DNA of 63,279 nt, taken from IMG/VR virus record IMGVR_UViG_3300009415_000003, one strand, 5' to 3'. Below the pieces are notes generated by a model. That model was given only the letters and a program-made list of their open reading frames with translations, made no database searches and had not been told where the DNA came from. Source of the stretch: a virus. Numbering within the stretch: position 1 is the first letter of the stretch; each line of letters starts with the position of its first letter. Below, one piece after another: positions 1 to 63,279 of this stretch. Made by a program: the position numbers and the translations under genes.

Positions 1-123
1 AACCTTAGCATGATTATAGAAAGTCTCTACTTTATGTTCATTCCAGCTATCAGAATCAATTATACAAATAGGCTGTACTGTAAGGCTTCCTGTCGTACTC
101 GTAAAGGGTAATCTGATATATGA
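1..123. repeat. Direct terminal repeat / circular-assembly overlap, copy 1
   Basis: Bases 1-123 are identical base for base to 63157-63279; implies a circular or terminally redundant unit of 63156 bp. Confidence 0.97.
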
Positions 124-354
124 TATAGCAGTAACAACTTGATTAGAATTGATATTGTAACTATCATTTAACATCCCGTTTCGCCAATCTGCTTTTGCGA
201 AGACTAAAGAATTAGAGACGTCTTGTCCATTCAATTCGATATAATTAGAATTGATATTGCTTTCTAAGTAATTTGATTTGATTGTGTCAGCTTCAACAAT
301 GGATTGAGCTGATAGAGAAAACGTGAATAATAGATAGATAATTAATAATTTCAT
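1..354 (-). CDS. Exported small protein, N-terminal 118 codons (gene crosses the window junction; C-terminal part is 63094..63156)
   Basis: The ATG at 352-354 overlaps the TGA of the upstream ORF (ATGA). It translates MKLLIIYLLFTFSLSA/QSIVEAD, a signal peptide with Gln at +1. The frame stays open to base 1 and continues through the repeat to TAA at 63094-63096, 138 aa in total. Confidence 0.7.
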   Translation of the reverse strand, partial: MKLLIIYLLFTFSLSAQSIVEADTIKSNYLESNINSNYIELNGQDVSNSLVFAKADWRNGMLNDSYNINSNQVVTAISYIRLPFTSTTGSLTVQPICIIDSDSWNEHKVETFYNHAKV

Positions 355-3300: not shown

Positions 3301-3554
3301 ATTGAGTTACATTCGGGCTTATCGCAGTCGCCAGAAAATCCGTAATATGTGCCACTCTCTGTGGTTATGAAACTTCCTGATCCAGTAGCTGTTAGTTCTG
3401 GTGTTCCGCTTAAATTCTTAGACCATTTAGCATCTCTTCCCCCGCCTGTTAGAAAAGCAGCATAGCAAAACTCACACTCTATGACAGCATCAACTGTTTG
3501 AGCATTGCCTGAAAAAAATGGCAAAATAAATAATACGATAAGTAACTTTTTCAT
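351..3554 (-). CDS. Exported giant cysteine-rich repeat protein (adhesin-like)
   Basis: 1067-aa ORF. The N-terminus MKKLLIVLFILPFFSGNA/QT is a signal peptide. I counted about 79 Cys by hand, in recurring GC/NC/CxC/CxxC modules. The C-terminal ~90 aa look like a beta-sandwich module. No catalytic motif recognised. Confidence 0.85.
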   Translation of the reverse strand: MKKLLIVLFILPFFSGNAQTVDAVIECEFCYAAFLTGGGRDAKWSKNLSGTPELTATGSGSFITTESGTYYGFSGDCDKPECNSIAQFNVTVFEVATFECVISLDGGATFQVDPDCSYANAVCYNDDDIIVGIQNLQPAGTTIQWLPNLESSLTINPEYNGCQGGQSIGFNLETPDGCKKSGSWNIVLDDPANCCLCEPIVTIDNCIIRVDASSAACQEYFAGGEGLVMECSPAQAGSPNFTVNSGITTYDMTNDTGCHNSLWTSRKITQNGDACCDITTPSIQANCVPPLEPVCDCEVNIDTGVNDCEMIIDFVGSDCGSLYSNVNLAYYGNGASPAGSTTFPESFCNLQNITPGVDITVSLSGCPNGDGWYGIQLSGATDPCTVRNFGFAKLTTCTQDPVCDPAPTVTAPSDESVCWTTEGFNSYQLGSDWFINNCSNWSGSVTAPSGCNINISSNGSFFVGQSTCEEYGVFTINLTCNSGDCAGETFSDTWTITNNCVDPSCNCPSFNFPDQTWCSGTGNYDFDPTPFGNYGDCSSASDLWEKNGNLTDLNTIVDIDGPGRYCYVVSCTPTGCSQCRTEHCFDVVTQCNCNSTVTLTSNGCILTASATNCPNATYTFVSPSGQQFPNGSSNTFTATASGNWIVSVRGCEGCNALNAQTTVNCNVNNCSCSDSQTTASFDPSNCRINISDSCPDRTWVVLKWNSSGCTGGGNTNVGSGNGNSTYNVTENGFYQVIFIGTNGCSNLMTTCNEFNCAPTCNCNATLLFDPDECELCWSYQGADCDNFESRRILNPDGSATLISGNSGCTSVSADGTYTLNSRDVSGNSNCPEKNWNANVSGCEGCTGTDSYSPFPLSANCFAAGYGWSWGYNYNCSDDCCGPIEFDGTFEVIANGSLVFSQQYTFTTNCGDTEDIFETINIGNTDPCDISTIRFSGFVTSNCTSNTFDVIRGSQFFNQFCNCPSSLINDANYLMSTNYLPSEIKGTSSFNETFIAQESKNYIFELSSYYRKDQFIINEYDSGCIRTQSGIDNNEPFIYEIELDQGEQVNIQVNECTQLSNSYKILIR

Positions 3555-3922
3555 TCAGCTGGTTCTGGTTCTTCAAAGCAAGCCCAATTAGGCGTAGCTT
3601 TTTTGCAAATGTCAAACTCATAACTAACCCTACTACTGCACCCTAAGCTCTCACAAACACAACTGACAAATACTGTATGACTCCCAACAGATAAAGTACC
3701 TGCATGAATAGTTACAGTTCCATCTATCTGTGATACTGTGCCCTCTGATGTACCATAGCTATAATTATTCGTGCTGTAATTATCAGTGCATGTGCTTGGA
3801 CCTAAAGTAATATCTTGACTCTCACAAAAGGGGCCACAAGGAATAAAGGCAATGTCAACTACCTCCACACTTGGACATGATAGCCAAAGGAAAATCAATA
3901 ATATGATGCTATTCCTAATCAT
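3551..3922 (-). CDS. Exported Cys-rich protein, paralogue of the N-terminal half of 4810..5466
   Basis: 123 aa with N-terminus MIRNSIILLIFLWLSC (signal peptide/lipobox). It shares the pattern C.DNY..Y...G.V..G.....F.V.C.C...C with the 218-aa neighbour. The start overlaps the upstream stop. Confidence 0.75.
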   Translation of the reverse strand: MIRNSIILLIFLWLSCPSVEVVDIAFIPCGPFCESQDITLGPSTCTDNYSTNNYSYGTSEGTVSQIDGTVTIHAGTLSVGSHTVFVSCVCESLGCSSRVSYEFDICKKATPNWACFEEPEPAE

Positions 3923-4800
3923 AGACAGTCCTCATTTTGAAAGGTGGTTTTGACAAATAGATTTGCAGAACACATGACTGTACAGCCTTCTGCATCTGTC
4001 ACCTCTACATGATAGGCTCCGTCATCTGTCACTATTGGATCTTCTACTGTAGATGTAAAACCATTTGGACCTGACCATACATAAGTGAATGGTGCGTTGC
4101 TTCCTGTTACTGTCAAATCAAATTGCCCAGACGGTGTATTATTTCTGCATATTTTGACGTTCTCGACTGAACAAGATAAGTCACTGTCTGATATTACAAT
4201 CTTCTCCACTGCTGCACCCATACACATACAATCATCTGTGACATCTTCGCTGACGGTCACTGAGTAAGTACCTGCCATTATTACATCTATGCATTCTGTC
4301 GTTTCGCCTGTGCTCCATACAAAATCAGGATTGACATAATTATTAGTCACTGCACAGATCTCTACCGACTCATCACAGAGCAACTCGTAAGGTGCTGATA
4401 TTTCGACTATGTATTTCTCGCAGCAATCCTCACTGCCTCCACCTTCACATGGGATGTATAGGGTAGTGGTTCCTGATCCAACACATCCTGTACAGTCTGG
4501 AAAAGAACCTGAGTATGTAAATGAGTAAGGTCCGCAAACCATTGGATCAAAACAGTGGTCATGTGGCCATTGGCTACCCTGAGTATAAATTGTTTCGCCT
4601 ACTGGTGAATTGAGAATGGTGATAGTGCCGCCTGGATCTGGCCTTAATCCATTTTCGTTAGAGTCAATTAAGTCTATGAAGTTATGACACTCTAACCAAT
4701 AGGCAATATGCAATTGGTGTTTCGTATGCTGATCATATTTATCATATGCATACCAAACACCAATTGTTATTAATATTATTAAGACTATCCAACGTTTCAA
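3919..4800 (-). CDS. Membrane-anchored/exported Cys-rich protein with SprB-repeat-like Ig module
   Basis: 293 aa with an N-terminal hydrophobic anchor MKRWIVLIILITIGVWYAY. The C-terminal CRNNTPSGQFDLTVTGSNAPFTYVWSGPNGFTSTVEDPIV..GAYHVEVTDAEGC fits the SprB-repeat/Ig-like pattern of Bacteroidota gliding adhesins. Confidence 0.75.
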   Translation of the reverse strand: MKRWIVLIILITIGVWYAYDKYDQHTKHQLHIAYWLECHNFIDLIDSNENGLRPDPGGTITILNSPVGETIYTQGSQWPHDHCFDPMVCGPYSFTYSGSFPDCTGCVGSGTTTLYIPCEGGGSEDCCEKYIVEISAPYELLCDESVEICAVTNNYVNPDFVWSTGETTECIDVIMAGTYSVTVSEDVTDDCMCMGAAVEKIVISDSDLSCSVENVKICRNNTPSGQFDLTVTGSNAPFTYVWSGPNGFTSTVEDPIVTDDGAYHVEVTDAEGCTVMCSANLFVKTTFQNEDCL

Positions 4801-5466: not shown

Positions 5467-5776
5467 CCTTAAAATATTTTTTAGTCATAACATAGAGTCT
5501 CAATTCACCTTCTTTTTTTTCTCTTCTTTCTTTTTCCTCTAAAGCCATTTGGTATTGAAAAACATCATTGCCATCAAGTGAAATTTTACTTTTCTTTTCA
5601 ATGACTTTTAATTCCAATGATTCCTCATCCGCTTTTCTGATGATCACTGTTTTCTTATCAATCAGCTCTGTTAATGTCCTATAAGTAATTCCTCCAAGTG
5701 GTGGAGGTGCTACAACTACCTGCCCAAATCCCACAAAGGAAATAGCCGATAAAATAAGTGTTGTGATTATTTTCAT
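5456..5776 (-). CDS. Exported small Lys/Glu-rich protein
   Basis: 106 aa with signal peptide MKIITTLILSAISFVGFG/QV. Overlaps both neighbours, suggesting translational coupling. Confidence 0.7.
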   Translation of the reverse strand: MKIITTLILSAISFVGFGQVVVAPPPLGGITYRTLTELIDKKTVIIRKADEESLELKVIEKKSKISLDGNDVFQYQMALEEKERREKKEGELRLYVMTKKYFKDER

Positions 5777-6681
5777 TGTATTTGATTTAAGCCTAAGTCA
5801 ACTATCGCAGCAGCATTAAGGTGGACATTATCACACCAAGTATATTGCTCTGTACTATGTGCGACTCCCGAGAAGTCTATAGCGAGTTGATCAAAGGCAT
5901 TATTGATATTCGTAATTCCGTTAGCTGGATAAATGACTGACCCAGTTTTTAATTTTATAAAATTCCATTCTGGTAGCTGACCTATATGACCATTTAAGCC
6001 ATTGATCAAGTCAGTCATATTAGAATAATAATTTGCTGAATTAGTCGCTCCTGTATCTGCTTCTCCTTGAGTCCATATGACTTTTAAGACATTGACATTT
6101 CTTGTGCCTGCCCATGCGATTAAATCATCATAAGCATCTAATGTAGTCTGATATAATTCATTAGGAGTATTGACATTCCAGTCTGAGTCATTAGGGTCTT
6201 GAAATAAAGATGTACCACCGTCAGCGACTTTTAATAATACCGTGACATTACAGTTCTCTTTTGAAAACTCATTAGCATAAACAGAACCAACTGAATAATG
6301 ATCGCTGAACCCGACATATCCAGTATTGCTACCAAATTCTAATAGATCACCAAAGCCATACCCATTACCTCCTACATTCGTATTCCATACATGAGCATCT
6401 CCGTCACTTGTAACTAAACTTAAATCATCTCCACATCGTGCACCTGCATTAGATTGACCTAATTCGATAATCACATCAATGTTGCATCCACAAGGTCTGT
6501 ATTCAGTAATACCTCCATCATCAATAAATGAAAAAACATTAGTCTCTTCTAAATATACCATCTCTGACTCATTAAAAGAATCAGAGATAGATGATTTACA
6601 TGTGTCCATTTCGCTTTGCGCAAAACCAAAGACAGAAAAAATAACTGCCACTATTCCAATATATCTCTTGAGTCCTATCAT
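5773..6681 (-). CDS. Exported SASA/DUF303-type carbohydrate O-acetylesterase (SGNH-like)
   Basis: 302 aa with signal peptide ..AVIFSVFGFA/QS. The blocks LGQSNAGAR, WTQGEADT and DNVHLN match the GQSNM ... W.QGE.D ... H signature of sialate O-acetylesterase-like esterases. Confidence 0.6.
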   Translation of the reverse strand: MIGLKRYIGIVAVIFSVFGFAQSEMDTCKSSISDSFNESEMVYLEETNVFSFIDDGGITEYRPCGCNIDVIIELGQSNAGARCGDDLSLVTSDGDAHVWNTNVGGNGYGFGDLLEFGSNTGYVGFSDHYSVGSVYANEFSKENCNVTVLLKVADGGTSLFQDPNDSDWNVNTPNELYQTTLDAYDDLIAWAGTRNVNVLKVIWTQGEADTGATNSANYYSNMTDLINGLNGHIGQLPEWNFIKLKTGSVIYPANGITNINNAFDQLAIDFSGVAHSTEQYTWCDNVHLNAAAIVDLGLNQIQ

Positions 6682-9099
6682 TTATTTCTGTAATTCTTTG
6701 ATTTGTTTTTCTAAGTCGTTTATTTTTTCAGCTTGTGCCTTTATAAGCGATAAGATTAATCCATCCATATCAGCCGTTTCTATTTTTTCATGATCGTGAA
6801 TAACTCCAATGTCATGACCTACGACATTGTAAAAATCCTCTGCCATGATACCAATATGCTGATCCTGATAACCTTGATAAGCCCACTTCGTAATGTCAAC
6901 ATTCAAGAACCGATCATACATTGATTGATAATTAACTGTTGAGAAATCATGCTTGAATTTCCTTGCTGATATTGCCGCCCAAGCTGTTGCACCAGCTCCT
7001 AATGTTGCACCTGTTAATTGAGCTTGATCTGAGTACATCCATATACCATTCTGACCGACCATTTTAACCTCGTCGGTATTAGTAGAATTTAAAGGGACGT
7101 TGTTAGCTGTGTTCCATAGAAAAACTCTATCATGTAAGGCATGCGAATTAGTCCCTAATATGACTGATGAATTAGTATTATTTCCTTCATTTCCATTACC
7201 TACTGCAATGGTAGATCCTGTATTTACAAAAACACCATTTATTCCAGATAAGAATGAATTGATTGAATTTCTATGGCTCATGTTCTGACCGCCTAAATAA
7301 TTATTTTGACCGTCAAATGATCTTACTTGCTGACCTATGACTGATGATCGACTTGTTTCATCTATTTTATTTCCAGCACCAAAGACAACATTATCAAATG
7401 AATTATCTACTCTGTTTTGCTGACCACCTACCCAAGTGTTATCACTATTATCTATTGAATCTCTTGTACCTATAGCACCAGAGGCTAATGAATTTAAGGC
7501 TATGTTATCTTGACCAAACCATAGTCCATTTTGTGAAGCCTGAATATCATTTCTTCTACCTCCACCAAATGAGTGATGAGAAGCCCTCCAGTAATTCTCA
7601 CGACCTGCAAAAAATCCAGACTGAGATAGTTCATTGTTATTAGTCCTACCTCCTGTCATAGACCAGTTACCATTAGAAGTAACATCATTTGAATTGACTA
7701 TATTAATTCTATGATTTGTCGTAACTCCCGTCATTAATGCATTATCACTATCCATCCCCGACACAATCAAATCAAAGTCACCTGTGCTGCCTCCATGTAA
7801 CAATCCTGTATGTAATGTCTTATGTAATCTTAGTACACAATTTTCATTAAACTGCCTGCCATCCTCATCTAAGTAAACTTCATTCGCACATAGTTCTTCT
7901 TCTACCGTTCCGTTTGGATTAAGAAACTGTAATGACTCACTAATGCCATCAGCATTAGTAATTCGCTGTACAAAAGGTGGATCATGCAAGACAATTGTAT
8001 CAGCTTCACATGTACTTGATACATGTACAATCAAGGTATCTTGAGCGACATATAATGAGCTTGGATGTACCGCTGGAATATCTTCACATTCGCTGATTGA
8101 ACCAACTAAGTCTAAAGGAAATGTTGTGTCCGTTCCTGTCTGTGGATCAGTAGACGTAATGATTAATTGACTACTGTCTGCATTATAGGCGAAGTCAGTA
8201 ATACATGATCTACAGAATGTAACTTTGCTTCCGTCTGGAGACGTGATCGTAGTATTGCCGCCTGTATTAGTCCATGATACTGTCGTGTCTGTTATCGTAT
8301 CTCCTACATTATTTGCATCCGCATCTTGTAAATTATACGTTCCATCTCCATTGTCAACCATTGTATAACAGTCAGCACATTCGCTCCCACCTTCTGGATA
8401 AGGCACTGTTGAAACTGTATTGCCGTCTACATCAATTAAGATTAAATTACCATCTGCATCTGTGCCTAAAGTGTAGCTTGGACAAGTCTCACAGAAAGTA
8501 ACTACTGTGCCTTCATCAGTTGTAAATGTTCCCGTACCTGTACCATCTATGTCTACGCTTAATATTCCATCATCACCATCTTCGCCTGGAGTTCCTGGTG
8601 CTCCAGTTTCTCCTGGTGGACCTGTTTCTCCGTCAGGTCCTGGTTCGCCTTGTGGGCCAGCCTCTCCTGGTGCTCCATCAGCACCGTCAGCTCCAGCAGG
8701 ACCTGGTTCATTAGGTGGACATTCTGCACAATCCCCTACGATATCACCACCGCCTCCACCTGACTTGAGACATTCGATTAAATCAGCATCACTCGTAAAG
8801 TTTACGATTCGACTTTTTGAATATCTTGTACCATCTATATTAACCATAGTTGATGTAAATGAAACATCATTATAGCCTACAGAAAAATTACGTTGTGCGC
8901 CTGTCACCACGTCAGAGACTTGTAATCCTTGAAATGGTGTCGCTGTATAATTCCCTGACTTAGTAAATTCTGTCTGCAATTCACAGACACATTCAATAGA
9001 TATTGGATTTAATTTCTGAGCACTTACATTAAGCGCAAAGAGTAATGAAAAAAGTAATGCTATATGTTTCATGTTTAAATTATTTGTGATCCAGTTCAT
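6682..9099 (-). CDS. Exported collagen-like / beta-helical fibre protein with C-terminal S74 intramolecular-chaperone (self-cleaving) domain
   Basis: 805 aa. There is a signal peptide MKHIALLFSLLFALNVSA/QK (an alternative ATG lies at 9072). It has 15 G-X-Y triplets and Asn/Gly/Ser-rich repeats resembling YadA-head/tailspike beta-helix. The C-terminal ISARKFKHDF...HIGIMAEDFYNVV...LILSLIKAQAEKINDLEKQIKEL fits the Peptidase_S74 chaperone-of-endosialidase pattern (S-x-R-x-K cleavage motif). Confidence 0.8.
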   Translation of the reverse strand: MNWITNNLNMKHIALLFSLLFALNVSAQKLNPISIECVCELQTEFTKSGNYTATPFQGLQVSDVVTGAQRNFSVGYNDVSFTSTMVNIDGTRYSKSRIVNFTSDADLIECLKSGGGGGDIVGDCAECPPNEPGPAGADGADGAPGEAGPQGEPGPDGETGPPGETGAPGTPGEDGDDGILSVDIDGTGTGTFTTDEGTVVTFCETCPSYTLGTDADGNLILIDVDGNTVSTVPYPEGGSECADCYTMVDNGDGTYNLQDADANNVGDTITDTTVSWTNTGGNTTITSPDGSKVTFCRSCITDFAYNADSSQLIITSTDPQTGTDTTFPLDLVGSISECEDIPAVHPSSLYVAQDTLIVHVSSTCEADTIVLHDPPFVQRITNADGISESLQFLNPNGTVEEELCANEVYLDEDGRQFNENCVLRLHKTLHTGLLHGGSTGDFDLIVSGMDSDNALMTGVTTNHRINIVNSNDVTSNGNWSMTGGRTNNNELSQSGFFAGRENYWRASHHSFGGGRRNDIQASQNGLWFGQDNIALNSLASGAIGTRDSIDNSDNTWVGGQQNRVDNSFDNVVFGAGNKIDETSRSSVIGQQVRSFDGQNNYLGGQNMSHRNSINSFLSGINGVFVNTGSTIAVGNGNEGNNTNSSVILGTNSHALHDRVFLWNTANNVPLNSTNTDEVKMVGQNGIWMYSDQAQLTGATLGAGATAWAAISARKFKHDFSTVNYQSMYDRFLNVDITKWAYQGYQDQHIGIMAEDFYNVVGHDIGVIHDHEKIETADMDGLILSLIKAQAEKINDLEKQIKELQK
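8566..8703 (-). repeat. Collagen-like G-X-Y triplet repeat (coding)
   Basis: Encodes GPAGADGADGAPGEAGPQGEPGPDGETGPPGETGAPGTPGEDGDDG (residues ~133-178 of the 805-aa ORF). Confidence 0.9.
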
Positions 9100-22953: not shown

Positions 22954-23026
22954 CGCAGGGTGAAGCAGTTGGTAGCTTGTCGGGCTCATAACCCGAAGGT
23001 CGTTGGTTCGAGTCCAGCCCCTGCAA
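22954..23026 (+). tRNA. tRNA-fMet(CAU): Initiator-type tRNA-Met (anticodon CAU)
   Basis: Hand-folded cloverleaf: acceptor CGCAGGG/CCCUGCA with a C1.A72 mismatch, D arm AAGC-AGUUGGUA-GCUU, anticodon arm UCGGG-CUCAUAA-CCCGA with three consecutive G-C pairs next to the loop, variable AGGUC, T arm GUUGG-UUCGAGU-CCAGC, discriminator A. It is close to E. coli tRNA-fMet. No CCA is encoded. Confidence 0.9.
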
Positions 23027-23050
23027 CTATCATAGATTTGTATTTTTATT

Positions 23051-35730: not shown

Positions 35731-36768
35731 CTATTCAGACACATATCCGATTTTGCTCGCTTCCGCTCTAAACGGACGTGAAAAAGTTGGTCGTAGTTTC
35801 TTCCATATTTGTTCACTATAGTCTCTTTTATCTAACATTGAGAAAAGTACATTTGGGTGACTTTGTTTTAAAAAATACTGAGCCGTTTCTTTTCTTGTAC
35901 CGAACTCATTGTAAGCCTCTTTACAGTCTTGTTCTATTTTCAGATATTCATCTTCTAATTGTTTCTTTACAGTCCTAACCCATTCGTAAAACTCATCTGG
36001 AACTCTTTCTAATAGTTCATCTATGTTTTTACCTGCCTTTAGGTTTTCCCATATTGATATATTTGAGAATTGGGTAATAAGTTTGTGGAGTCTAATATAT
36101 TCAGTGAATTTTATTTTCATTCTAAATCCACAATTAAAGACTATTACATATCCTTCACTATTATTAGTGTCTTGTTCTTTTAGAGATTCAAATGATTCTG
36201 AGCTATAAGATTTGACAATATCGAATCCGTGAGACTCTAAAGGCATTTCTTTACCAGTTTTTGTTTCTATTACAGCTAATAACACAAGTTCTTCTTTTGC
36301 TCCGTAATCAACCACTATTTTATTATCAGGGTAAATTATTTCAAAGAGATAAGTGTAATTCTGATTAAGGTATGGTATTATGTGACTATACTTTCCCGAC
36401 AACCAAGATGTAGACTTAATCGCTTGGGCTGATTCAAAAGATCCTCTGGTGGATATAAAGGGATTGTTGCCTATCCAATACATTATTCCTAAAGATCCGT
36501 CCATCTTTTCATACACTCTGTAATCTTGAGATGGTATATTAGGCATATCGTCCTCTTGTAACTCTTCCATATTGAATAACTTAGGAAATGGTCTTGCTAC
36601 TATTTCTTGATGCTCGTTAAGTATTAATCCTCTACACATTAATGTAGTGTCGTTCCAGAATTTTTCAAATTGAGTTTTAGGACTATAGTTGTATATCCAA
36701 AGTTTTTCAGTCGGATGTTTTCTTGATTTTATCCATCCTTCTTCGATGTATTTATTTAAGTCTTTCAT
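35731..36768 (-). CDS. ATP-dependent RNA ligase, T4 RnlA (Rnl1)-like
   Basis: 345 aa. Nucleotidyl-transferase motif I is YEKMDGSLG (KxDG). The N-terminal ..NYSPKTQF..LMCRGLILNEHQEIVARPFPKLFN resembles the T4 Rnl1 N-terminal region. Confidence 0.7.
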   Translation of the reverse strand: MKDLNKYIEEGWIKSRKHPTEKLWIYNYSPKTQFEKFWNDTTLMCRGLILNEHQEIVARPFPKLFNMEELQEDDMPNIPSQDYRVYEKMDGSLGIMYWIGNNPFISTRGSFESAQAIKSTSWLSGKYSHIIPYLNQNYTYLFEIIYPDNKIVVDYGAKEELVLLAVIETKTGKEMPLESHGFDIVKSYSSESFESLKEQDTNNSEGYVIVFNCGFRMKIKFTEYIRLHKLITQFSNISIWENLKAGKNIDELLERVPDEFYEWVRTVKKQLEDEYLKIEQDCKEAYNEFGTRKETAQYFLKQSHPNVLFSMLDKRDYSEQIWKKLRPTFSRPFRAEASKIGYVSE

Positions 36769-57457: not shown

Positions 57458-57895
57458 TTATCGATTAACCACCACTTTATCAAACATCTCAACTTCCATC
57501 ATACGAATAAACCTCTGATAAGCCATATAGCTCTGCATCCCCATCCAGTCACCATTTCGATCAAGCTTAACACCTTCATTAATGAGTGGACACCCTCTGG
57601 TGTTCTTAATCGTATTACCTGTATGAAATAGCACTGCTGAAAAATTAGGTATGTTTTCGATTCTGACAATAAAAGGATGGCCTAAACGATTGCGGTAGAG
57701 CTTTAGAAATCGGCTGTTGGCTGTATTGGTTTCATAGATCAAATCAAACGTCCCTGATGGTATGCGTGTCTCTCCTGCGATCTTAGGCTTCCTGTGTCCA
57801 TCTTCTATCACATTACAGAAGTGTTTGCCTCGAACTTCTAAGCTGGACCAAGTGGAGTTCTTGGTTTCGGACATTAGTTTGATTGCAATAGACAT
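57458..57895 (-). CDS. DUF5675-domain protein
   Basis: 145 aa. ..FCNVIEDGHR..GETRIPSGTFDL...VLFHTGNTIKNTRGCPLI.. fits the DUF5675 pattern. Confidence 0.6.
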   Translation of the reverse strand: MSIAIKLMSETKNSTWSSLEVRGKHFCNVIEDGHRKPKIAGETRIPSGTFDLIYETNTANSRFLKLYRNRLGHPFIVRIENIPNFSAVLFHTGNTIKNTRGCPLINEGVKLDRNGDWMGMQSYMAYQRFIRMMEVEMFDKVVVNR

Positions 57896-58140
57896 ATCTG
57901 AGGATTGTAATTTTCTTTTAAAAAAATAACTATCTGTTTAGATGATACAAGTCGTGCACCATAAGCCACTGCAATATTTACTTGCCATTGTCTGACGTCA
58001 TAATGTGGCTGATATTTACCTCTTTTATTTTCAAACCATGATTTAGAAATTCCTATTTTCGCAGCAAAGTCATGCAACTCTTTGATTGAACTTGCAACCA
58101 TATGAGAATAACCGTTTTTTGGATTGTCTATTAATATCAT
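57874..58140 (-). CDS. DUF4031-domain protein
   Basis: 88 aa. ..YSHMVASSIKELHDFAAKIGISKSWFENK...HYDV...AVAYGARLV fits DUF4031. Confidence 0.6.
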   Translation of the reverse strand: MILIDNPKNGYSHMVASSIKELHDFAAKIGISKSWFENKRGKYQPHYDVRQWQVNIAVAYGARLVSSKQIVIFLKENYNPQICLLQSN

Positions 58141-58167: not shown

Positions 58168-58908
58168 TTATGTTAAAGTCTTAACAATAATAAAAATAAT
58201 AAATACCAAAACACTAACTCCTAAAATAATTGATATTTTTAAAAGATACCTGTGGATTGGACCAAATAGCCCAAGATCATATCCCAACTTCTCAGGTCTA
58301 ACTATTTTCCTACTGCTGCCATATCTATTCTTAACCATTTGATCTAATCCATCTATTGAGTCCTGAGTTATTGTAGCTTTTTCATTGTAGGTATCTCCCA
58401 TGATATCTTCTCTAACATGGGTATGGCTGAAACCTAAAGCATGACCCCATTCATGTATATAGAATGTCTCAAGATGATAGCTTCCTTTTTGATATTTTTG
58501 TGTGAAATATTCAGCATCATTTAATAGTATTTTTTTATCATGGTACCAGCCCAATACTCCTTTATTGAATCCATGCTTAAACTTTTTCTTTTTGCCATTC
58601 AATAAAGTAGCAACTGCATTTCCATCTCTACCATTTACTGCTGCATAGACCTTAATGTCCGCTTTCCTGATATCAGATGTTTGTACTAGCAACAACCGAT
58701 GATCTTTCAATATTTTATTCCAATGAGTTGTAGCAGCTACCATAGTTAGCAGCTGATCCCTTGTACCCATATCTTTATTGTAATTGACCATATGCCAATA
58801 GAGAATACCATCTTTATTAAAGTCAGCTAACTTTTTAGTCTTATAATATTCCGGCCCGTTGTGGTCATGTATAGACTGGCACCCTTGTATTACGATGTTC
58901 TCTGACAT
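58168..58908 (-). CDS. Matrixin-like (M10) zinc metalloprotease with C-terminal TM anchor
   Basis: 246 aa with HEWGHALGFSHTH (HExxHxxGxxH) and a Met-turn-like EDIMGDTY. The C-terminal helix is ISIILGVSVLVFIIFIIV. No N-terminal signal peptide. Confidence 0.7.
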   Translation of the reverse strand: MSENIVIQGCQSIHDHNGPEYYKTKKLADFNKDGILYWHMVNYNKDMGTRDQLLTMVAATTHWNKILKDHRLLLVQTSDIRKADIKVYAAVNGRDGNAVATLLNGKKKKFKHGFNKGVLGWYHDKKILLNDAEYFTQKYQKGSYHLETFYIHEWGHALGFSHTHVREDIMGDTYNEKATITQDSIDGLDQMVKNRYGSSRKIVRPEKLGYDLGLFGPIHRYLLKISIILGVSVLVFIIFIIVKTLT

Positions 58909-59432
58909 GGTGTATCTTGTTTAATTTCTTGATCTTTTAACTTCTGAGTGCCTACGATCATCAGACCAATTCCTAAACATGTAAGGCCCCAAAATCCTGC
59001 AGTTGGTATAGCAACACTATCTGGCTGCAAAACAATAGTAGTATCCATAGGCATAGGCTGAACCTGAATTATAGTGTCTGGAATGATTGGAATACCGCTC
59101 TGCATGCATTGGCTAAGATCAAAGACATAAGTCGTCATAAATACCTCCTTACCTCCAGGTGCAATCGAGTCTACTATGACCCATGCATGACCTGAATACT
59201 CTAATATCTGATCTGGCAGTATATCAAACCTTGCTATAACTTGATTTATAATGCTTTGCTGAGTCACTAAGGAATCAATATTAGATGTAGCTATTTCATT
59301 CACACTATAGATCTGATCTGCTTGTGTAGTTCCTATAAAGAAGCAAGTGTCTTGCTGTGAAAAAGCGCTGCTACAATTAAGCAGCAACGCTAAAAAACCA
59401 ACACTCAATCTGACATAAATATTTTTTATCAT
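58890..59432 (-). CDS. Exported protein with IPTL/PEP-CTERM-like C-terminal sorting tail
   Basis: 180 aa with signal peptide ..LALLLNCSSAFS/QQ. The C-terminus is AIPTAGFWGLTCLGIGLMIVGTQKLK: a motif, a TM helix and a basic cluster. Confidence 0.65.
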   Translation of the reverse strand: MIKNIYVRLSVGFLALLLNCSSAFSQQDTCFFIGTTQADQIYSVNEIATSNIDSLVTQQSIINQVIARFDILPDQILEYSGHAWVIVDSIAPGGKEVFMTTYVFDLSQCMQSGIPIIPDTIIQVQPMPMDTTIVLQPDSVAIPTAGFWGLTCLGIGLMIVGTQKLKDQEIKQDTPCQRTS

Positions 59433-60490
59433 AGTCCTAACTCTTTACACATCTGATCAATAAATTCAACTGCATCAGTAAGCTTTGCGCCCTTCTGTGA
59501 GTATTGAACTTTGAATGTAGACAACCGACTTAGTACTGCTTGTTTCTTAGCTGAGTCTGATTTGGCTTTTGCTAAATCATCCTTAACATTACTAAGTTCA
59601 AATTTAGTATCTTCTAATTCTCTTTTGATTTCTTCAATCTCAATTTCCAACTCATCACATTCAGGGTTTAAATCTATAGGATCAATAGGGTCTACGGGTT
59701 CATCGATCTGATCAAACGGGTAGTGTCGTTTGCCGAATAAAACTAAGTCCTCTGTGAAGCGGTCCTGTGGGTTTCCTGAGCTGCCGTCTAATGTTAATTT
59801 AGAACTATAAGGATAACCCATAGGATTGTGATTGTTATATGGAGAATTGTTTGTCTGTGATTCTGTTAATCGGTTAAGTATATTATTCCTAATAGTGTTT
59901 ATATCCCAATTATTTGGAGGTCCAGAAGCCCAAGCAATAACAGCTGACTCATTCCATGGTATTGGATTATTGGGATTCTGATGTTCATGAAATAATCCCA
60001 ACATATGTCCAAATTCATGTAGGACGGTTATTGAGTCTAACCATCCAAAATTCATGGTTTGTTGTGTGCTTAATGCATTAGGTATTCTACCTACAAAAGA
60101 CCATGCTCCAGAATTATTAAATCCAATTCTAATGTCTGACTCACTAACAGGCACACCCCACTGAAAATCAATATTAACTACTTTCTTCCATCGTTCGGCG
60201 TTTTTAATGACAAAATTCCACTTAATAGAATTACCACCAATCCATGCCACTTTAATGGTTTGCCCAGTTTCCCAGTATCTGTTTTTTATACTGACATATC
60301 TGTCTGGTAAATTTGATATCTCTACAGGCTTAATACTGTTGTTTGTTTTTGCAAAATTATTCCACTCATCAATATTAGCAATCTGTATGCAGTCGCCCTG
60401 CTTCTCTGAATCTATCGGGTTTAATGGTTGCTCACTGATGCAGCTAACTAAAAAAAGAAGAGCTGGAAATAAATATTTTAAATGTCTCAT
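59429..60490 (-). CDS. Astacin-like (M12A) zinc metalloprotease lipoprotein
   Basis: 353 aa with lipobox ..ALLFLVSC. HEFGHMLGLFHEHQNPN matches the astacin signature HExxHxxGxxHE. The C-terminus is a coiled coil. Confidence 0.75.
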   Translation of the reverse strand: MRHLKYLFPALLFLVSCISEQPLNPIDSEKQGDCIQIANIDEWNNFAKTNNSIKPVEISNLPDRYVSIKNRYWETGQTIKVAWIGGNSIKWNFVIKNAERWKKVVNIDFQWGVPVSESDIRIGFNNSGAWSFVGRIPNALSTQQTMNFGWLDSITVLHEFGHMLGLFHEHQNPNNPIPWNESAVIAWASGPPNNWDINTIRNNILNRLTESQTNNSPYNNHNPMGYPYSSKLTLDGSSGNPQDRFTEDLVLFGKRHYPFDQIDEPVDPIDPIDLNPECDELEIEIEEIKRELEDTKFELSNVKDDLAKAKSDSAKKQAVLSRLSTFKVQYSQKGAKLTDAVEFIDQMCKELGL

Positions 60491-61395
60491 TTGCTTTGGA
60501 TTAAGTTATTGACTCTAATTAGAAGTTTTTGTATTTCTGCTTTTTCAAAATCTGTAAGGCAGTCAATCTTATCAGGATCAACATTAATATCGGGTTTCGT
60601 TCCCTTACCATAGACGGCTTTGATCATATCCCAGTCACCCTGCACAACTTTTCTATTTAACTTTGCTGTATTGGCTATCTTAAACGCCTCAGAGCCATTC
60701 TCAAAGACTTCTGCAGGATAGGCATAGAACATGATTGAATCCCAGTTAAGCGGTCCGAAAACTGCTGTTTTTGCCAACCTATCTTTATAGGCAAAAAATG
60801 CATCTACTTGGAATTGTGTCCATCCTTGGCTAATTCTCCATTCAGCATATTTAACACGATTAAACTTGACATCTTTATGATACTGCGTATGAAAAAATCC
60901 AAGCATGTGTAGTAGCTCATGTGGGATCACCCTTCCATCTTCATAGTCGCCTGTGTCATATTCTTCAAACCCTGCTGAGGTACTTGTAGAATCTTGGTGA
61001 ATCTTCCTGCAATCAGTTCCTAAATAGGATAAGCCGCCTTTTGATTCTTGAAATCCGAAACGATTATCTGCAAAAGTATTTCCATAGACTTGCAAAAATG
61101 TAAACTTCTCATTCCCTGCTGATCTAATCGTATCTTGGATTCTTGATAACCAACTCTCATAATAGCCTTGATATCTGTCAATCGTTTCCTGACTCTTTTT
61201 TGTATTGATATAAAGATACTTGTAGGTGATTGTATCGTCTGGCCACCATAGATATTTAAGTCCTACTGATTGCTGAATTGGCTGGATGCAGTAATGATCG
61301 TGAGTGACTTCTACTGAGTTGAATGATTCAACTGGACCTGTGTAGTTGCACGCCAAAAGGAAAAGAATTGATATATATGCAATGAATCTGTTCAC
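60487..61395 (-). CDS. Astacin/metzincin-like zinc metalloprotease lipoprotein
   Basis: 302 aa with lipobox ..ILFLLAC, HELLHMLGFFHTQ (HExxHxxGxxH) and the Met-turn SIMFY. Confidence 0.7.
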   Translation of the reverse strand: MNRFIAYISILFLLACNYTGPVESFNSVEVTHDHYCIQPIQQSVGLKYLWWPDDTITYKYLYINTKKSQETIDRYQGYYESWLSRIQDTIRSAGNEKFTFLQVYGNTFADNRFGFQESKGGLSYLGTDCRKIHQDSTSTSAGFEEYDTGDYEDGRVIPHELLHMLGFFHTQYHKDVKFNRVKYAEWRISQGWTQFQVDAFFAYKDRLAKTAVFGPLNWDSIMFYAYPAEVFENGSEAFKIANTAKLNRKVVQGDWDMIKAVYGKGTKPDINVDPDKIDCLTDFEKAEIQKLLIRVNNLIQSK

Positions 61396-61416
61396 TATAT
61401 TGAGTCTCTAAATTAG

Positions 61417-62463
61417 TTAATAGGCATAGTTCATATTATCATACCTTAATAAATCATAGTCATGTAAATCCTTAGTAATAAACCGCCTAACTCGATAGAC
61501 CTCATTCTGAGTCAATGTATCTGTTAATGATATACCTTCTTTAATGCTACCATCCCAGTGAGCTTTAATGAACTTGTACATAGTCGTCTCAATACAATCA
61601 GTACCAAAACAAGGCGCATCCGATGCATTCCATAATCTCGGAACCAATACGCTGTCCATCTGACTTGATAAACTTGGCTGCATTGAGTTAGACGTATGGC
61701 AACTATTACACTTCTGATCGTATAGCTCCCAGTCACCGTATATCAGATTACTTTCCCCTCTGATAAACTTTGAAATGTTATTGTTATATGGTAGTAGATT
61801 CTGCTGAAAGGCTGACAAAGCACAAGCGACGACCTCAAAGATGATTGTGGTATCATATGCTGCTACTGCTAATTCATTCAAATGTATGTCGTGAGCTGCT
61901 ACTAATGTAAGGTCTGGCAAAAAGTGAGCTGATGATGCTTTGGTAACTTGGAATTCCCCTGGCACTTCTGTCTTGAAACCTGCCGATAAGACACGATCAC
62001 CATTGAATGCAATACCTAATGATGTCCTTGACTTGACTGTTTTTTCATCAACTGGAATGGCTTTTGCTGCTACTGGATCTGCACCCCAATTGATAAGAGA
62101 CTTTACATATTTACCCCTGAATTTACCACTCCCTGCGCGTAATGGTGTCAATGCATAATATCCAGCTTCAACACTATGGCAATCCTCACAAGCTGTTTTA
62201 CTTACATCTGTAGGCATGTGAAATAGAAGGTCACCAAGCTCAATGGCTGCTGATGTGTCCTTAATGGCCATTGTGGACTTGATCTCTACTTTTTTAGGTA
62301 CTTCGTATTTATATAGCTTTGATAAGTCTGACAAGGCTTCGACTTGGGTACGATCATAGAATGGCTTATCTTGTTCAGTGCAACTTGAAAAAGTGCAGCA
62401 AATTAATGCTGCACTTGTAATCAATAAGCTATATATAAAAAGACGAAATCTATCTTTATTCAT
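61417..62463 (-). CDS. Di-haem cytochrome c peroxidase / MauG-family lipoprotein
   Basis: 348 aa with lipobox ..CCTFSSC. It has two CxxCH haem motifs (CEDCH and CNSCH) in CCP-like context: LGDLLFHMP...CEDCH and ALSAFQQNLLPYNNNISKFIRGE...CNSCH. Confidence 0.7.
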   Translation of the reverse strand: MNKDRFRLFIYSLLITSAALICCTFSSCTEQDKPFYDRTQVEALSDLSKLYKYEVPKKVEIKSTMAIKDTSAAIELGDLLFHMPTDVSKTACEDCHSVEAGYYALTPLRAGSGKFRGKYVKSLINWGADPVAAKAIPVDEKTVKSRTSLGIAFNGDRVLSAGFKTEVPGEFQVTKASSAHFLPDLTLVAAHDIHLNELAVAAYDTTIIFEVVACALSAFQQNLLPYNNNISKFIRGESNLIYGDWELYDQKCNSCHTSNSMQPSLSSQMDSVLVPRLWNASDAPCFGTDCIETTMYKFIKAHWDGSIKEGISLTDTLTQNEVYRVRRFITKDLHDYDLLRYDNMNYAY

Positions 62464-62785
62464 CAGAATTTATTTTATCACAAAAAGTGCTTTCTGGAAA
62501 TTTCTCGCAAAGGAAAATATCAAGCAATTCATCTTTTAATTTTTGAGCACACCTGCATCCTAATACCTTATCTATTGCATTAATGGCAGTGGTACCTAAG
62601 CTGATGATCTCAGCTATCCCTAACGCCTCTGGACTATGTTGATACTGAGTATATGATCTATACTCATCTGGTGACATCTTCACATAAACAGAATCAGTCG
62701 GAAAATAGCCCACACTCTGAGAGTGCAGGCTTAAAACACTTAAACTAATAACTAATGATAAGACTATTAACCTTTTAATCATCAA
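62456..62785 (-). CDS. Exported small protein
   Basis: 109 aa with signal peptide ..LSVLSLHS/QS and four Cys. Confidence 0.65.
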   Translation of the reverse strand: MMIKRLIVLSLVISLSVLSLHSQSVGYFPTDSVYVKMSPDEYRSYTQYQHSPEALGIAEIISLGTTAINAIDKVLGCRCAQKLKDELLDIFLCEKFPESTFCDKINSDE

Positions 62786-63032
62786 GTAAATTATTAGCTG
62801 TTTTTAAAGCTTCTGGTTTACCTGATATGTGTCTGATGGTTCGAGATCCTAATAAAAACCCAAATGCTGTTTCTAATAGAAAGTCTGTGTATGATGCAGG
62901 ATCTAATCCTGAAATTCCACCTAATAGTTCAACTGATCCTGCCATTGCAATTACAATAAATAAATGAAGCATGGGTGAACTGGCCTTTAAGCGGTCCAAT
63001 AATTGAGCCAATACGGAATTAAGTGATGTCAT
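62775..63032 (-). CDS. Two-TM small membrane protein (holin candidate), start revised
   Basis: The track start TTG 63068 lies upstream of the promoter box. The ATG at 63032 gives 85 aa, MTSLNSVL...MLHLFIVIAMAGSVELLGGI...FLLETAFGFLLGS..., with a charged C-terminus. Confidence 0.5.
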   Translation of the reverse strand: MTSLNSVLAQLLDRLKASSPMLHLFIVIAMAGSVELLGGISGLDPASYTDFLLETAFGFLLGSRTIRHISGKPEALKTANNLLDD

Positions 63033-63054
63033 GATATTAAGATTTTTAGTTATA

Positions 63055-63062
63055 TAAATATA
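63055..63062 (-). promoter_or_regulatory. -7-like promoter box TATATTTA
   Basis: The reverse complement of taaatata, 22 nt upstream of the ATG at 63032. Confidence 0.4.
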
Positions 63063-63093
63063 CAACAAAATAGTATTACTATATTATACTATT

Positions 63094-63279
63094 TTATCGA
63101 TAGCAAACCATTTTGAAATTATCATTTACTGAATTGCCATTTTGATCTCGGAAATAAACCTTAGCATGATTATAGAAAGTCTCTACTTTATGTTCATTCC
63201 AGCTATCAGAATCAATTATACAAATAGGCTGTACTGTAAGGCTTCCTGTCGTACTCGTAAAGGGTAATCTGATATATGA
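63094..63279 (-). CDS. C-terminal part of the junction-spanning exported protein (partial at the window edge)
   Basis: Same frame as 1..354 through the repeat. It ends ...YFRDQNGNSVNDNFKMVCYR, with TAA at 63094-63096. Confidence 0.7.
   Translation of the reverse strand, partial: SYIRLPFTSTTGSLTVQPICIIDSDSWNEHKVETFYNHAKVYFRDQNGNSVNDNFKMVCYR
63157..63279. repeat. Direct terminal repeat / circular-assembly overlap, copy 2
   Basis: Identical to 1-123. Confidence 0.97.

Follow-up and report, generated by a model that had tools for sequence, protein, structure and literature searches.

Once an endolysin has acted, the layer outside the murein is handled by spanins (Rz/Rz1) or, in mycobacteriophages, by LysB. 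Spanins are non-enzymatic fusogens, and LysB, an esterase, shows that a post-endolysin step can be enzymatic; to our knowledge, no proteolytic version of this step has been described. Among metzincin proteases, the comparison for two of those considered here is myroilysin (M12A; Myroides profundi / Myroides sp. CSLB8; PDB 5czw, 5gwd, 5zjk), a free, secreted digestive enzyme in which a cysteine of the pro-peptide blocks the zinc (PMC9629494). A 2023 survey of astacins included only one viral sequence, from a reovirus (PMC9848320).

The window, that is, the whole 63,279-nt stretch of viral DNA analysed (IMG/VR record IMGVR_UViG_3300009415_000003), is the complete, circular genome of an uncultured, siphovirus-like phage. 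Its circularity follows from a 123-bp direct terminal repeat (bases 63157-63279 are identical to bases 1-123), and it encodes a tape measure, terminase, head protease, RecT and helicase. The host very probably belongs to the Bacteroidota. An initial annotation described three tandem metzincin proteases beside a lipoprotein gene resembling di-haem cytochrome c peroxidase or MauG. All four open reading frames lie on the minus strand where it placed them and contain the motifs that it quoted, and all four products pass the curated Pfam cut-offs (CCP_MauG 25.6, Astacin 22.5 and Peptidase_M10 24 bits), so the motifs are not chance matches. The combination was also held to be non-standard for a phage, and tblastn found no match for any of the four proteins in 50,697 GenBank phage genomes. 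Because the contig is circular, the unit proves larger than these four genes, starting with an ORF across the junction (354 to 63094) and continuing down to 57458. All of the module features below are on the minus strand.

Metzincins and the di-haem lipoprotein

M12b (353 aa, 59429..60490; Pfam Astacin 32.4 bits) is a lipoprotein of the myroilysin type, aligning with myroilysin across the whole catalytic domain (PDB 5gwd, E 2e-29, Met-turn aligned). Downstream of its lipobox (LVS-C17) are the zinc motif H158EFGH162xxGxxH168E, present as earlier quoted (HEFGHMLGLFHEHQNPN, 59429-60490), and the Met-turn M224-x-Y226; it shares with myroilysin both HEFGHxLGLxHEHQNP and the Met and Tyr of the Met-turn. 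Its catalytic residues are invariant in the clade alignment (dN/dS 0.11). Cys34 of the pro-segment, conserved across the M12b clade, is compatible with a cysteine-switch latency like that of myroilysin; an early Cys is also present in most viral homologues. M12a (302 aa, 60487..61395; Astacin 26.1 bits) is a more distant, astacin-like relative (E 1e-6 against myroilysin; dN/dS 0.06), with a lipobox (LLA-C16), H159ExxH163xxGxxH169 (HELLHMLGFFH) and the Met-turn SIM222FY224 (SIMFY), but with Thr following the third His, where the family has its specific Glu. Whereas myroilysin is freely secreted, both phage enzymes are lipoproteins encoded in a lysis region, and M12b is extended at its C-terminus by ~80 aa resembling a coiled coil (coiled-coil-type matches at 273-341). 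M12a and M12b, 29% identical over 80 aa, are old paralogues rather than products of a recent duplication.

The third protease, M10 (246 aa, 58168..58908; Peptidase_M10 50.1 bits), is matrixin-like and covers profile positions 7-157 of 159. It has H152ExxH156xxGxxH162 (HEWGHALGFSH) and a Met-turn at IM170 (IMGDTY) that aligns with ALMYPSY of MMP-1. Unlike MMPs and bacterial matrixin-like peptidases, of which we take karilysin of Tannerella forsythia to be an example, M10 has no signal peptide and carries a C-terminal membrane anchor. It also has Thr after the third His, where MMPs have Ser, and, instead of a PRCGxPD switch, a conserved N-terminal C10-Q-S-x-H14 that is a possible cysteine switch. 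Since hydropathy gives no N-terminal signal and a C-terminal TM anchor at 218-246, the catalytic domain is predicted to lie on the cytoplasmic side of the membrane. Its dN/dS is 0.14, and a search of 5.8 billion proteins at word-index sensitivity returned no homologues beyond its own small phage clade.

The three zinc-protease signatures are thus those of real metzincins. They are only partly in tandem: M12a and M12b are adjacent, but a gene for a 180-aa protein separates M12b from M10. A periplasmic or surface location, as first proposed for the protease battery, fits the three lipoproteins (the di-haem protein, M12a and M12b) but not M10, whose only targeting element is its C-terminal TM segment.

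The di-haem lipoprotein (348 aa, 61417..62463; CCP_MauG 31.1 bits) has a lipobox (LIC-C23) and haem sites C92xxC95H96 and C252xxC255H256 (dN/dS 0.08). Its AF2 model (pLDDT 89.4) matches only bCCP, MauG, MbnH and YhjA structures among the top 50 Foldseek matches in the PDB (TM 0.52-0.61, probability 1.0), and the family profile matches PDB bCCPs at E 4e-26. From the model, the CCP/MauG fold can be assigned confidently, in agreement with the initial annotation. The two-domain fold is shared with bCCPs (Shewanella CcpA 3o5c, Nitrosomonas 1iqc, Geobacter MacA 4aal) and with the MauG/MbnH branch; the two CxxCH sites have bCCP-like spacing, and the ELGxxLF, AIxxFE and VPxLxN segments are conserved, but identity to bCCPs is only ~15%. 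In the phage family, the Met that serves bCCPs as axial ligand of the C-terminal haem is replaced by His in 22 of 30 members and by Cys in 8 of 30, Gly occupies the distal His71 position, and, in the window phage's clade, the inter-haem Trp is Ser; Q172, H180 and D139 are invariant instead. Because these bCCP residues are missing, peroxidase function is not established. The family is tiny, with 36 clusters among 1.84 billion representatives; wherever the context of a member was read, the contig is phage-like or uninformative, and a lipoprotein-type N-terminus is present in nearly all of the members read.

Module organisation and the endolysin

The late operon closes with a conserved, tightly packed module of ~5.7 kb, most of whose genes overlap. 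These encode, in order, a 138-aa exported protein, a holin-like protein, a 4-Cys exported protein, the di-haem lipoprotein, M12a, M12b, the 180-aa protein, M10, an optional DUF4031 protein and the lysin. From the di-haem gene to M10, a gap of 21 nt is followed by overlaps of 4, 4 and 19 nt, as first described. Predicted envelope targeting across the module amounts to three lipoboxes, three or four signal peptides and two C-terminal anchors. The seven genes compared have dN/dS values of 0.06-0.20, and the module genes are under purifying selection; the catalytic and haem-binding residues, under the same constraint, are all intact.

The 138-aa ORF has its 5' part at 1..354, beginning with a signal peptide (MKLLIIYLLFTFSLSAQS), and crosses the circular junction to a 3' end at 63094..63156, called on the circularised sequence. 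Its start overlaps the stop of the gene for a 1067-aa, 79-Cys secreted protein, which heads the block of exported proteins upstream. The 138-aa product has no Pfam match and has a homologue at the same position in a related phage, L081. The next ORF (62775..63068; probable ATG start at 63032, giving 85 aa) encodes a small membrane protein, also conserved in L081, that is a candidate holin by its size, TM segments and position. A 19-mer hydropathy scan gives one clear hydrophobic segment and a possible second, short one, and the C-terminus is charged; the protein matches no holin family, and an unrelated multi-TM protein occupies its position in a second relative, L001. The 109-aa 4-Cys protein (62456..62785) has a signal peptide and four conserved Cys (LGCRCAQ...C...C; dN/dS 0.14), is conserved in L001, L081 and a third relative, L003, and is always encoded directly upstream of the di-haem protein within the window phage's clade.

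The 180-aa exported protein (58890..59432; dN/dS 0.20) combines an N-terminal signal peptide with a C-terminal TM segment that, following IPTAGFWGL, resembles an IPTL-CTERM-type sorting tail. It is conserved in L001 and L081, and its slot in L003 holds a different Cys-rich protein with a signal peptide. The DUF4031 protein (88 aa, 57874..58140; Pfam 61.5 bits) occurs in L001 but in neither L081 nor L003, and so does not belong to the module core.

The initial annotation saw no canonical endolysin and considered an unconventional lysis system, but the last gene of the late operon, which converges on a plus-strand block ending at 57419, encodes a probable endolysin, a 145-aa DUF5675 protein (57458..57895; Pfam 67.8 bits) with the motif H91-x-G...G-C102. 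The DUF5675 domain is classed as a C82-like lysin (preprint 10.64898/2026.04.11.717860). By tblastn it matches 92 phage records, the majority of them from crAss-like Bacteroides phages; several records annotate the match as an L,D-carboxypeptidase/transpeptidase, and some have a "lysis regulatory protein/holin" feature overlapping or abutting it; the product is probably a C82/YkuD-like L,D-carboxypeptidase/transpeptidase. With this lysin present, and a Peptidase_M15_3 endolysin in the same slot in L001, L081 and L003, an endolysin-free lysis system is not needed. The larger ORFs in the rest of the genome included no further recognisable lysin, holin or spanin.

The module gene order is common to four phages (the window phage, L001/L002, L081 and L003), among which di-haem protein identity falls to 53%. 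In all four the module ends at the endolysin, and it is retained although the endolysin type is swapped; in L003, a 2-TM holin-like ORF lies between M10 and the endolysin.

Possible functions of the module

We tentatively favour the reading that the module is a late-expressed, envelope-directed lysis accessory. The candidate holin and the DUF5675 lysin would perform the canonical membrane and murein steps. M12a and M12b would be exported in advance via Sec/Lsp, probably as cysteine-switch zymogens like myroilysin, and would cleave proteins that hold or coat the Gram-negative envelope, such as outer-membrane-to-murein tethers, outer-membrane proteins and surface proteins, a job done in other hosts by spanins or, enzymatically, by mycobacteriophage LysB. 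The tail-anchored M10 would work on the cytoplasmic side of the inner membrane, or would reach the envelope after the holin fires, and the di-haem lipoprotein would be a redox enzyme of the periplasm, the same compartment, either peroxidase-like or MauG-like. Spanins and LysB are functional analogues only: a lysis cassette supplying an outer-membrane lipoprotein and inner-membrane-anchored periplasmic proteins is comparable, but there is no sequence or architectural homology with the module proteins, and the proteolytic version is one that we infer.

A role in lysis is suggested by the retention of the module at the endolysin in four phages despite the endolysin swap, by its envelope-targeting signals, and by the pro-segment Cys conserved in the M12b clade, given the latency of myroilysin. 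Moreover, in unrelated phage contigs, myroilysin-type M12 genes recur 0-3 genes upstream of peptidoglycan peptidases (an overlapping Peptidase_M15_3 in the crAss-like L011, an M23-like peptidase in L016 and Peptidase_M15_4 in L072), and in L007 genes for a small multi-TM protein and for small exported proteins again come before that of a homologue of the di-haem protein. Against it, protease-endolysin adjacency occurs in only ~4 of the 14 independent phage lineages examined (~1.6 expected by chance; binomial p ~0.07), and in other phage contigs members of the di-haem family are found with neither metzincins nor a visible lysin (L004, L005 beside the small terminase, and L008-L010 following tail-like genes). 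The 1067-aa Cys-rich protein at the head of the exported block has no obvious lysis role, and the predicted orientation of M10 counts against a simple periplasmic one.

As possible substrates, the initial annotation conjectured receptors, gliding adhesins and co-encoded Cys-rich proteins. The lipoprotein proteases might instead clip receptor, outer-membrane or gliding proteins, stopping further adsorption to infected cells and debris by receptor destruction or superinfection exclusion, as do the phage T5 lipoprotein Llp and viral receptor-destroying enzymes. Lipoproteins can be surface-exposed in Bacteroidota, and the di-haem protein, M12a and M12b are lipoproteins; on the circular map the tail-fibre genes directly precede the module, and this adjacent tail region encodes a SASA-family carbohydrate esterase of the receptor-modifying type (5773-6681), along with a protein that weakly matches the SprB repeat. 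We nevertheless consider such surface remodelling unlikely. No clear acidic lipoprotein export signal follows the lipobox Cys, M10 probably has its catalytic domain on the cytoplasmic side, and neither the constant coupling to the endolysin nor the endolysin-adjacent M12 genes of L011, which lack any signal peptide, would be explained.

Position alone is no proof of function, because morons are classically inserted beside lysis genes. The location of the module might reflect nothing more, with the proteases digesting external protein, to feed the infected cell or as fitness factors, as myroilysin does for Myroides, and the di-haem enzyme detoxifying periplasmic H2O2. The closest characterised relative is a secreted elastase of a marine flavobacterium. 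In cellular genomes, the relatives of M12b are secreted proteases of an ordinary kind, which also counts against the lysis reading, and hundreds of cellular homologues, many in Aquimarina, Tenacibaculum, Maribacter and Neolewinella, have signal peptides and chromosomal contexts; the varied positions of the di-haem family in other phages fit as well. Auxiliary genes of this kind are, however, an improbable explanation: no integrase or lysogeny module was found among the ORFs scanned, and digestive enzymes would be of little benefit in one lytic cycle. The module genes overlap those next to them, with no sign of a separate promoter or terminator, and the enzymes carry lipid or membrane anchors instead of being freely secreted. 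Nor is the di-haem protein a borrowed host peroxidase, since the Met ligand, distal His and Trp of bCCPs are absent from it and it has no relative in 185,579 species genomes scanned with one pattern.

It is very unlikely that the module is a maturation system in which a MauG-like enzyme oxidatively modifies or cross-links the 4-Cys, 180-aa or 1067-aa protein and the metzincins process it. MauG, with its Tyr ligand, is characterised by variation at the axial position held by Met, and the His or Cys found here is likewise not bCCP-type ligation; the fixed place of the 4-Cys gene and the small exported proteins before the L007 homologue are also compatible. But the MauG Tyr ligand and inter-haem Trp are missing in the window phage's clade, no candidate partner resembles preMADH or MbnP, and di-haem family members exist without proteases or a Cys-rich protein. 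Enzymes carried on the tail or ejected to digest surface protein at entry are the most improbable of all: although tail-fibre genes directly precede the module and an M12 homologue lies between the portal and prohead protease genes in viral contig L067, haem c attachment is periplasmic, and the Sec/lipoprotein signal peptides and membrane anchors route the module proteins out of the cytoplasm, where virions are assembled.

Organization of the late operon

Bases 1-123 of the window recur exactly at 63157-63279 as a direct terminal repeat. Because the two ends are identical over these 123 bases, the sequence represents a phage genome that is complete and assembled as a circle, with a length of 63,156 bp. 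Its genes include those of a tailed phage (tape measure protein, large and small terminase subunits, and head maturation protease) and several for replication and recombination (RecT, a helicase, a replication initiator, and NinG), and apart from its tRNA it has no DNA-level relatives among GenBank phages. This tRNA-Met (CAT; 22954-23027, plus strand) is the sole tRNA, lies on the strand opposite to all surrounding genes, which are on the minus strand, and is 88 to 91% identical to tRNAs of a Pseudomonas phage and of Lak megaphages. Between the packaging genes and the tape measure gene, a minus-strand gene (35731-36768) matches the PHROG "RNA ligase and tail fiber protein attachment catalyst" (E 1e-69).

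The late operon lies entirely on the minus strand. From the tail fibre region (collagen-like fibre, 6682-9099; SASA-type esterase, 5773-6681), it continues through the gene for a 1,067-aa secreted protein with 79 cysteines (351-3554) and that for a 138-aa exported protein, whose ORF crosses the junction (354 to 63094) and appears only once the genome is circularised. There follow an ~85-aa membrane protein (62775-63032/63068), a 109-aa exported protein with four cysteines (62456-62785), the lipoprotein resembling cytochrome c peroxidase (CCP; 61417-62463), the lipoproteins M12a (60487-61395) and M12b (59429-60490), the exported, C-terminally anchored 180-aa protein p180 (58890-59432), the tail-anchored protease M10 (58168-58908), a DUF4031 protein, and, as the last gene, DUF5675 (57458-57895), after which the operon stops, facing a convergent plus-strand block. 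Neighbouring genes mostly overlap, by 4 to 22 nt. Scans for sigma-70 promoters and terminators returned chance-level results, the models being uninformative for this type of host.

The initial annotation had drawn attention to the CCP, M12a, M12b, and M10 genes as a cluster of three tandem proteases beside a di-haem protein, all with lipoboxes or transmembrane (TM) anchors. An ORF listing bears out these four minus-strand ORFs, their coordinates, and the motifs quoted for them, but the unit is larger, extending from the 138-aa ORF down to DUF5675. There are three real metzincin genes, but they are not strictly tandem, since the p180 gene separates M12b from M10. CCP, M12a, and M12b are lipoproteins as described, whereas M10 lacks both a signal peptide and a lipobox and has only a C-terminal hydrophobic anchor.

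The order of small TM protein, 4-Cys protein, CCP, M12a, M12b, exported protein, M10, and lysin is kept in four phages, across which identity drops to 53% for CCP and to 33 to 34% for M10. For the seven genes compared between the window and the related phage contig L001, dS is 0.2 to 1.0 and dN/dS is 0.06 to 0.20, values that rule out pseudogenes. In the relatives of the module, zinc ligands, catalytic Glu, Met-turns, and both CxxCH motifs are invariant, the sole exception being M12a of L003, the most distant contig. The module genes are intact at their active sites and under purifying selection, bear export or anchor signals, and occupy a fixed place between a small membrane protein and a lysin where the late operon ends.

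Several neighbouring genes also encode unusual proteins. Directly upstream of the module, the 1,067-aa protein has a Bacteroidota-type signal peptide (…FFSGNAQ), no Pfam or PHROG match, and a C-terminal part conserved in the related contig L081; an exported protein of this kind closing a block of tail genes is odd. In the tail region (5773-6681, 6682-9099, and 3919-4800, minus strand), the esterase belongs to the SASA family of carbohydrate (sialate O-acetyl-type) esterases (5773-6681; E 2e-12), the collagen-repeat fibre has a weak match to an endosialidase chaperone (S74), and a further protein has a sub-threshold SprB-repeat match; together, these matches hint that the receptor is a glycan and the host a gliding member of the Bacteroidota. 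The C-terminal end of p180 (…IPTAGFWGLTCLGIGLMIVGTQKLK, residues about 140 to 165) resembles a sorting tail of the IPTL-CTERM or PEP-CTERM type, and its only NCBIfam match is a weak one to "midcut-by-XrtH" (E 0.028).

The three metzincin proteases

Profile HMM searches place each of the four proteins above its curated Pfam threshold: M10 scores 50.1 bits against Peptidase_M10 (cut-off, 24) and covers profile positions 7 to 157 of 159, M12b and M12a score 32.4 and 26.1 bits against Astacin (cut-off, 22.5), and CCP scores 31.1 bits against CCP_MauG (cut-off, 25.6). The zinc motif HExxHxxGxxH reads HELLHMLGFFH in M12a, HEFGHMLGLFH in M12b, and HEWGHALGFSH in M10 and is invariant across the clade alignments of all three, except in the M12a orthologue of L003 (L003 1235-2116), where the sequence is HEVVGHALGSMLH. 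This orthologue has HEVVGH, with one additional residue per spacer and no obvious signal peptide. HELLGH, which HEVVGH resembles, is the motif of M49 peptidases, and the L003 protein may be inactive or bind zinc differently. Met-turn methionines align with those of solved enzymes, M224 of M12b and M222 of M12a with the SIMHY Met of myroilysin and M170 of M10 with the ALMYP Met of MMP-1 (HEWGHALGFSH...DIMGDTY against HELGHSLGLSH...ALMYPSY). By these alignments, all three proteases belong to the metzincin clan.

M12b aligns with myroilysin, a solved flavobacterial astacin, over the whole catalytic domain, including the Met and Tyr of the Met-turn (E 2e-29), which identifies it as an unambiguous myroilysin homologue, and it has both marks of the astacin family, H168-E169 and M224-x-Y226. 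M12a matches myroilysin structures at E 1e-6; it retains M222-x-Y224 but has H169-T170, without the family Glu. The two share just 29% identity over 80 aa and are thus old paralogues, which rules out a recent tandem duplication. An NCBIfam assignment of M12b to "beta-glucuronidase AbsR1" is sub-threshold (100.7 bits against a cut-off of 650) and was rejected, myroilysin being the relevant solved homologue. Cysteine-switch latency is documented for myroilysin (PMC9629494), and the conserved pro-segment Cys of M12b (C34) fits the same form of latency. M10 has no N-terminal hydrophobic segment, and so no secretion signal, and no PRCGxPD pro-peptide; its N-terminus contains a conserved C10-Q-S-x-H14.

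M12b has at least 981 homologues; those found in genomes are frequent in marine Bacteroidota (Maribacter, Aquimarina, Tenacibaculum, and Neolewinella) as well as in many other phyla, and those in the two chromosomal contexts inspected have signal peptides. M12 proteases occur at 68 viral loci in IMG/VR, most of them in giant-virus MAGs or large contigs. The typical viral M12 lacks a signal peptide and has a Cys early in the sequence, followed by the catalytic domain and, at the C-terminus, a TM tail, a layout that the M10 of the window shares. Many giant-virus MAGs and contigs of 100 to 395 kb (L013-L080) encode such astacins, with two to three copies at some loci (L041, L057, and L080). By tblastn, no match to any of the three proteases was obtained among 50,697 deposited phage genomes. 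A review of astacins from 2023 gives one viral example (PMC9848320). Literature searches found no discussion of a viral myroilysin-like family in work on astacins and nothing relevant on phage astacins beside endolysins or on phage-encoded cytochrome c peroxidase; phage-borne astacins and matrixins are essentially absent from the protease literature.

The di-haem protein

Relatives of CCP are scarce: a word-index search of 5.8 billion proteins returned 2, and a HMMER search run exhaustively over 1.84 billion cluster representatives returned 36. The latter supplied the 30 family members used for structure prediction, raising the pLDDT of the AF2 model from 38.8 with a 3-sequence alignment to 89.4 (pTM, 0.83). 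The top 50 Foldseek hits of this model are all bacterial CCPs (bCCPs), MauG, MbnH, or YhjA (TM scores, 0.52 to 0.61), and the 30-member profile matches solved bCCPs at E 4e-26, MbnH at 2e-17, and MauG at about 1e-11. The protein is thereby modelled as a two-domain CCP/MauG fold and, like bCCPs, has two CxxCH motifs within that fold.

The resemblance does not extend to the residues around the haems. In bCCPs, the C-terminal (electron-transfer) haem has His/Met ligation, but the column of this Met (…AVxxM) is occupied by His in 22 and by Cys in 8 of the 30 family members, with H302 in the window protein. Both His and Cys can ligate haem, although His/Cys ligation is rare among c-type cytochromes, and the alignment points to bis-His or His/Cys ligation in this family. 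By profile alignment, the distal His71 of bCCPs is replaced by Gly in a GGG loop, and the inter-haem Trp94 is replaced by Ser in the window clade, the Trp being retained in 5 of 30 members. D139, Q172, and H180 are invariant in the family; one reading, a gap-free alignment of E170 with bCCP Gln104, would put H180 on the catalytic Glu114. From profile and model, therefore, the CCP/MauG-like character proposed for this protein is sound with respect to fold and CxxCH motifs, but with the Met ligand, His71, and Trp94 all replaced, peroxidase or MauG function is not established.

Nearly all family members read are 310 to 380 aa in length with lipoprotein-type N-termini, and their contexts, in the members for which these were read, are phage-like or too short to judge. 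The gene adjoins that for the small terminase in contig L005, follows large tail-like ORFs in L008-L010, and in L007 is preceded by a multi-TM protein together with small exported ones (the multi-TM proteins of L007 and L001 have no detectable similarity). When 185,579 species genomes were scanned with a pattern built from a six-sequence alignment, no relative was found, so that no host or prophage can be assigned through this gene. Scans of IMG/VR queried with the CCP alignment or with M12b alone gave no match, tblastn found no CCP in the 50,697 deposited GenBank phage genomes, and the BFVD library of viral structures has no match to the fold (best E, 1.7). As judged from these searches, the protein apparently represents a tiny branch of the CCP/MauG superfamily that is confined to phages and has altered haem ligation. 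Given the absence of the fold from BFVD and of the protein from the phage genomes searched, it would bring haem c redox chemistry into the known range of phage-encoded functions.

The lysis region and possible roles of the module

The initial annotation saw no canonical endolysin in this genome, but one is present at the end of the module. The DUF5675 protein (57458-57895, minus strand) scores 67.8 bits in Pfam, and 92 deposited phage genomes encode homologues of it, most of these genomes being of crAss-like Bacteroides phages. Several of the homologues are labelled "L,D-carboxypeptidase/transpeptidase", and in some records a "lysis regulatory protein/holin" feature overlaps or adjoins the match. 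The domain has been classed structurally as a C82 (YkuD)-like lysin (2026 preprint, 10.64898/2026.04.11.717860). In L001/L002, L081, and L003, a Peptidase_M15_3 endolysin occupies exactly the slot of DUF5675, which places the module inside the lysis region; because one or the other lysin is always present, the metzincins themselves are ruled out as the endolysin. Small TM proteins stand at the head of the module in the window, L001, and L081 and immediately before the lysin in L003, where the ORF is holin-like (69 aa, two TM segments). None of these proteins matches a Pfam holin family, and in the rest of the genome, PHROG scans covering the larger ORFs yielded no further lysin, holin, or spanin. 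The region has the features of a phage lysis cassette, with a candidate holin recognised by its position and TM segments. It differs in architecture from a two-component spanin, which pairs a type II inner-membrane coiled-coil protein with a small outer-membrane lipoprotein from an embedded or overlapping gene; PHROG scans gave no spanin match, and the lipoproteins here are enzymes of 300 to 350 aa, so that these and the membrane-anchored p180 offer only a loose analogy.

It is quite possible, though we would put it somewhat below an even chance, that the module assists lysis by acting on the envelope. Ahead of lysis, the CCP-like protein and both astacins would be delivered by Sec/Lsp to the periplasm or the outer membrane; once the holin has triggered and the murein has been cleaved, the proteases would attack proteins of the envelope, completing the disruption that spanins accomplish in other Gram-negative hosts and that LysB accomplishes enzymatically in mycobacteria. 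M10, with its tail anchor and N-terminal CQSxH, might work at the cytoplasmic membrane face or reach the envelope via holin lesions.

Alternatively, the lipoproteins, which lie beside tail genes including the SASA-type esterase, might destroy receptors and exclude superinfection, an option that we consider doubtful. Similarly unlikely is that the genes are morons or auxiliary metabolic genes: the proteases have digestive relatives and the context of the CCP family varies, but the enzymes are membrane-anchored, the genes are translationally coupled, and the CCP family is missing from cellular genomes (pattern scan, 185,579 species), all of which speaks against this. Maturation of co-encoded exported proteins in the manner of MauG would accommodate both a haem ligation unlike that of bCCPs and the 4-Cys protein as a constant neighbour, and the fold is as similar to MauG and MbnH as to bCCPs by Foldseek; however, MauG has a Tyr axial ligand and an inter-haem Trp where the family has His or Cys and the window clade Ser, respectively, and no partner of the MauG or MbnH type (mau- or mbn-like neighbours, preMADH or MbnP) occurs in the window or its relatives, leaving this only a slim chance. 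That the proteins are virion enzymes is highly improbable, as their signal peptides count against it.

To our knowledge, spanins are rarely recognisable in Bacteroidota phages, which is why little is understood of how these phages breach the outer membrane when they lyse the cell. Conserved envelope-targeted proteases between a holin-like gene and an endolysin provide a concrete candidate for the missing step. A bolder reading, which we regard as unlikely, is that some Bacteroidota phages finish lysis with enzymes in place of spanins, pre-positioning latent cysteine-switch lipoprotein metzincins and a phage-only, His/His- or His/Cys-ligated di-haem enzyme of the CCP/MauG fold in the envelope, which, after holin and endolysin action, would dismantle outer-membrane attachments proteolytically and/or oxidatively. 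If true, this would constitute a third-step lysis mechanism of a new kind, and no functional c-type di-haem enzyme would have been known from a virus before. Every component comes from a known superfamily; what is new is the phage-restricted CCP/MauG branch with altered haem ligation, the occurrence of metzincins in phages as lipoprotein and tail-anchored forms, and their conserved assembly within a lysis region.

With respect to a role in lysis, a peptidoglycan peptidase lies within four genes of M12 in 3 of 13 phage-like loci: Peptidase_M15_3 overlapping the M12 gene in the crAss-like L011, an M23-like peptidase in L016, and Peptidase_M15_4 in L072. Including the window clade, proteases and endolysins adjoin in 4 of 14 lineages, versus about 1.6 expected by chance (binomial P of about 0.07), a pattern that is suggestive but not conclusive. 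That myroilysin-type proteases recur next to endolysins, in crAss-like phages and elsewhere, suggests that the idea may reach abundant gut and marine phages. The 64-kb contig L011 has an apparent lysis cassette at 249-3274, comprising TM proteins, a protein with TM and coiled-coil segments, and a small lipoprotein; its astacin, overlapped by the Peptidase_M15_3 gene, has no signal peptide and ends in an amphipathic C-terminal tail.
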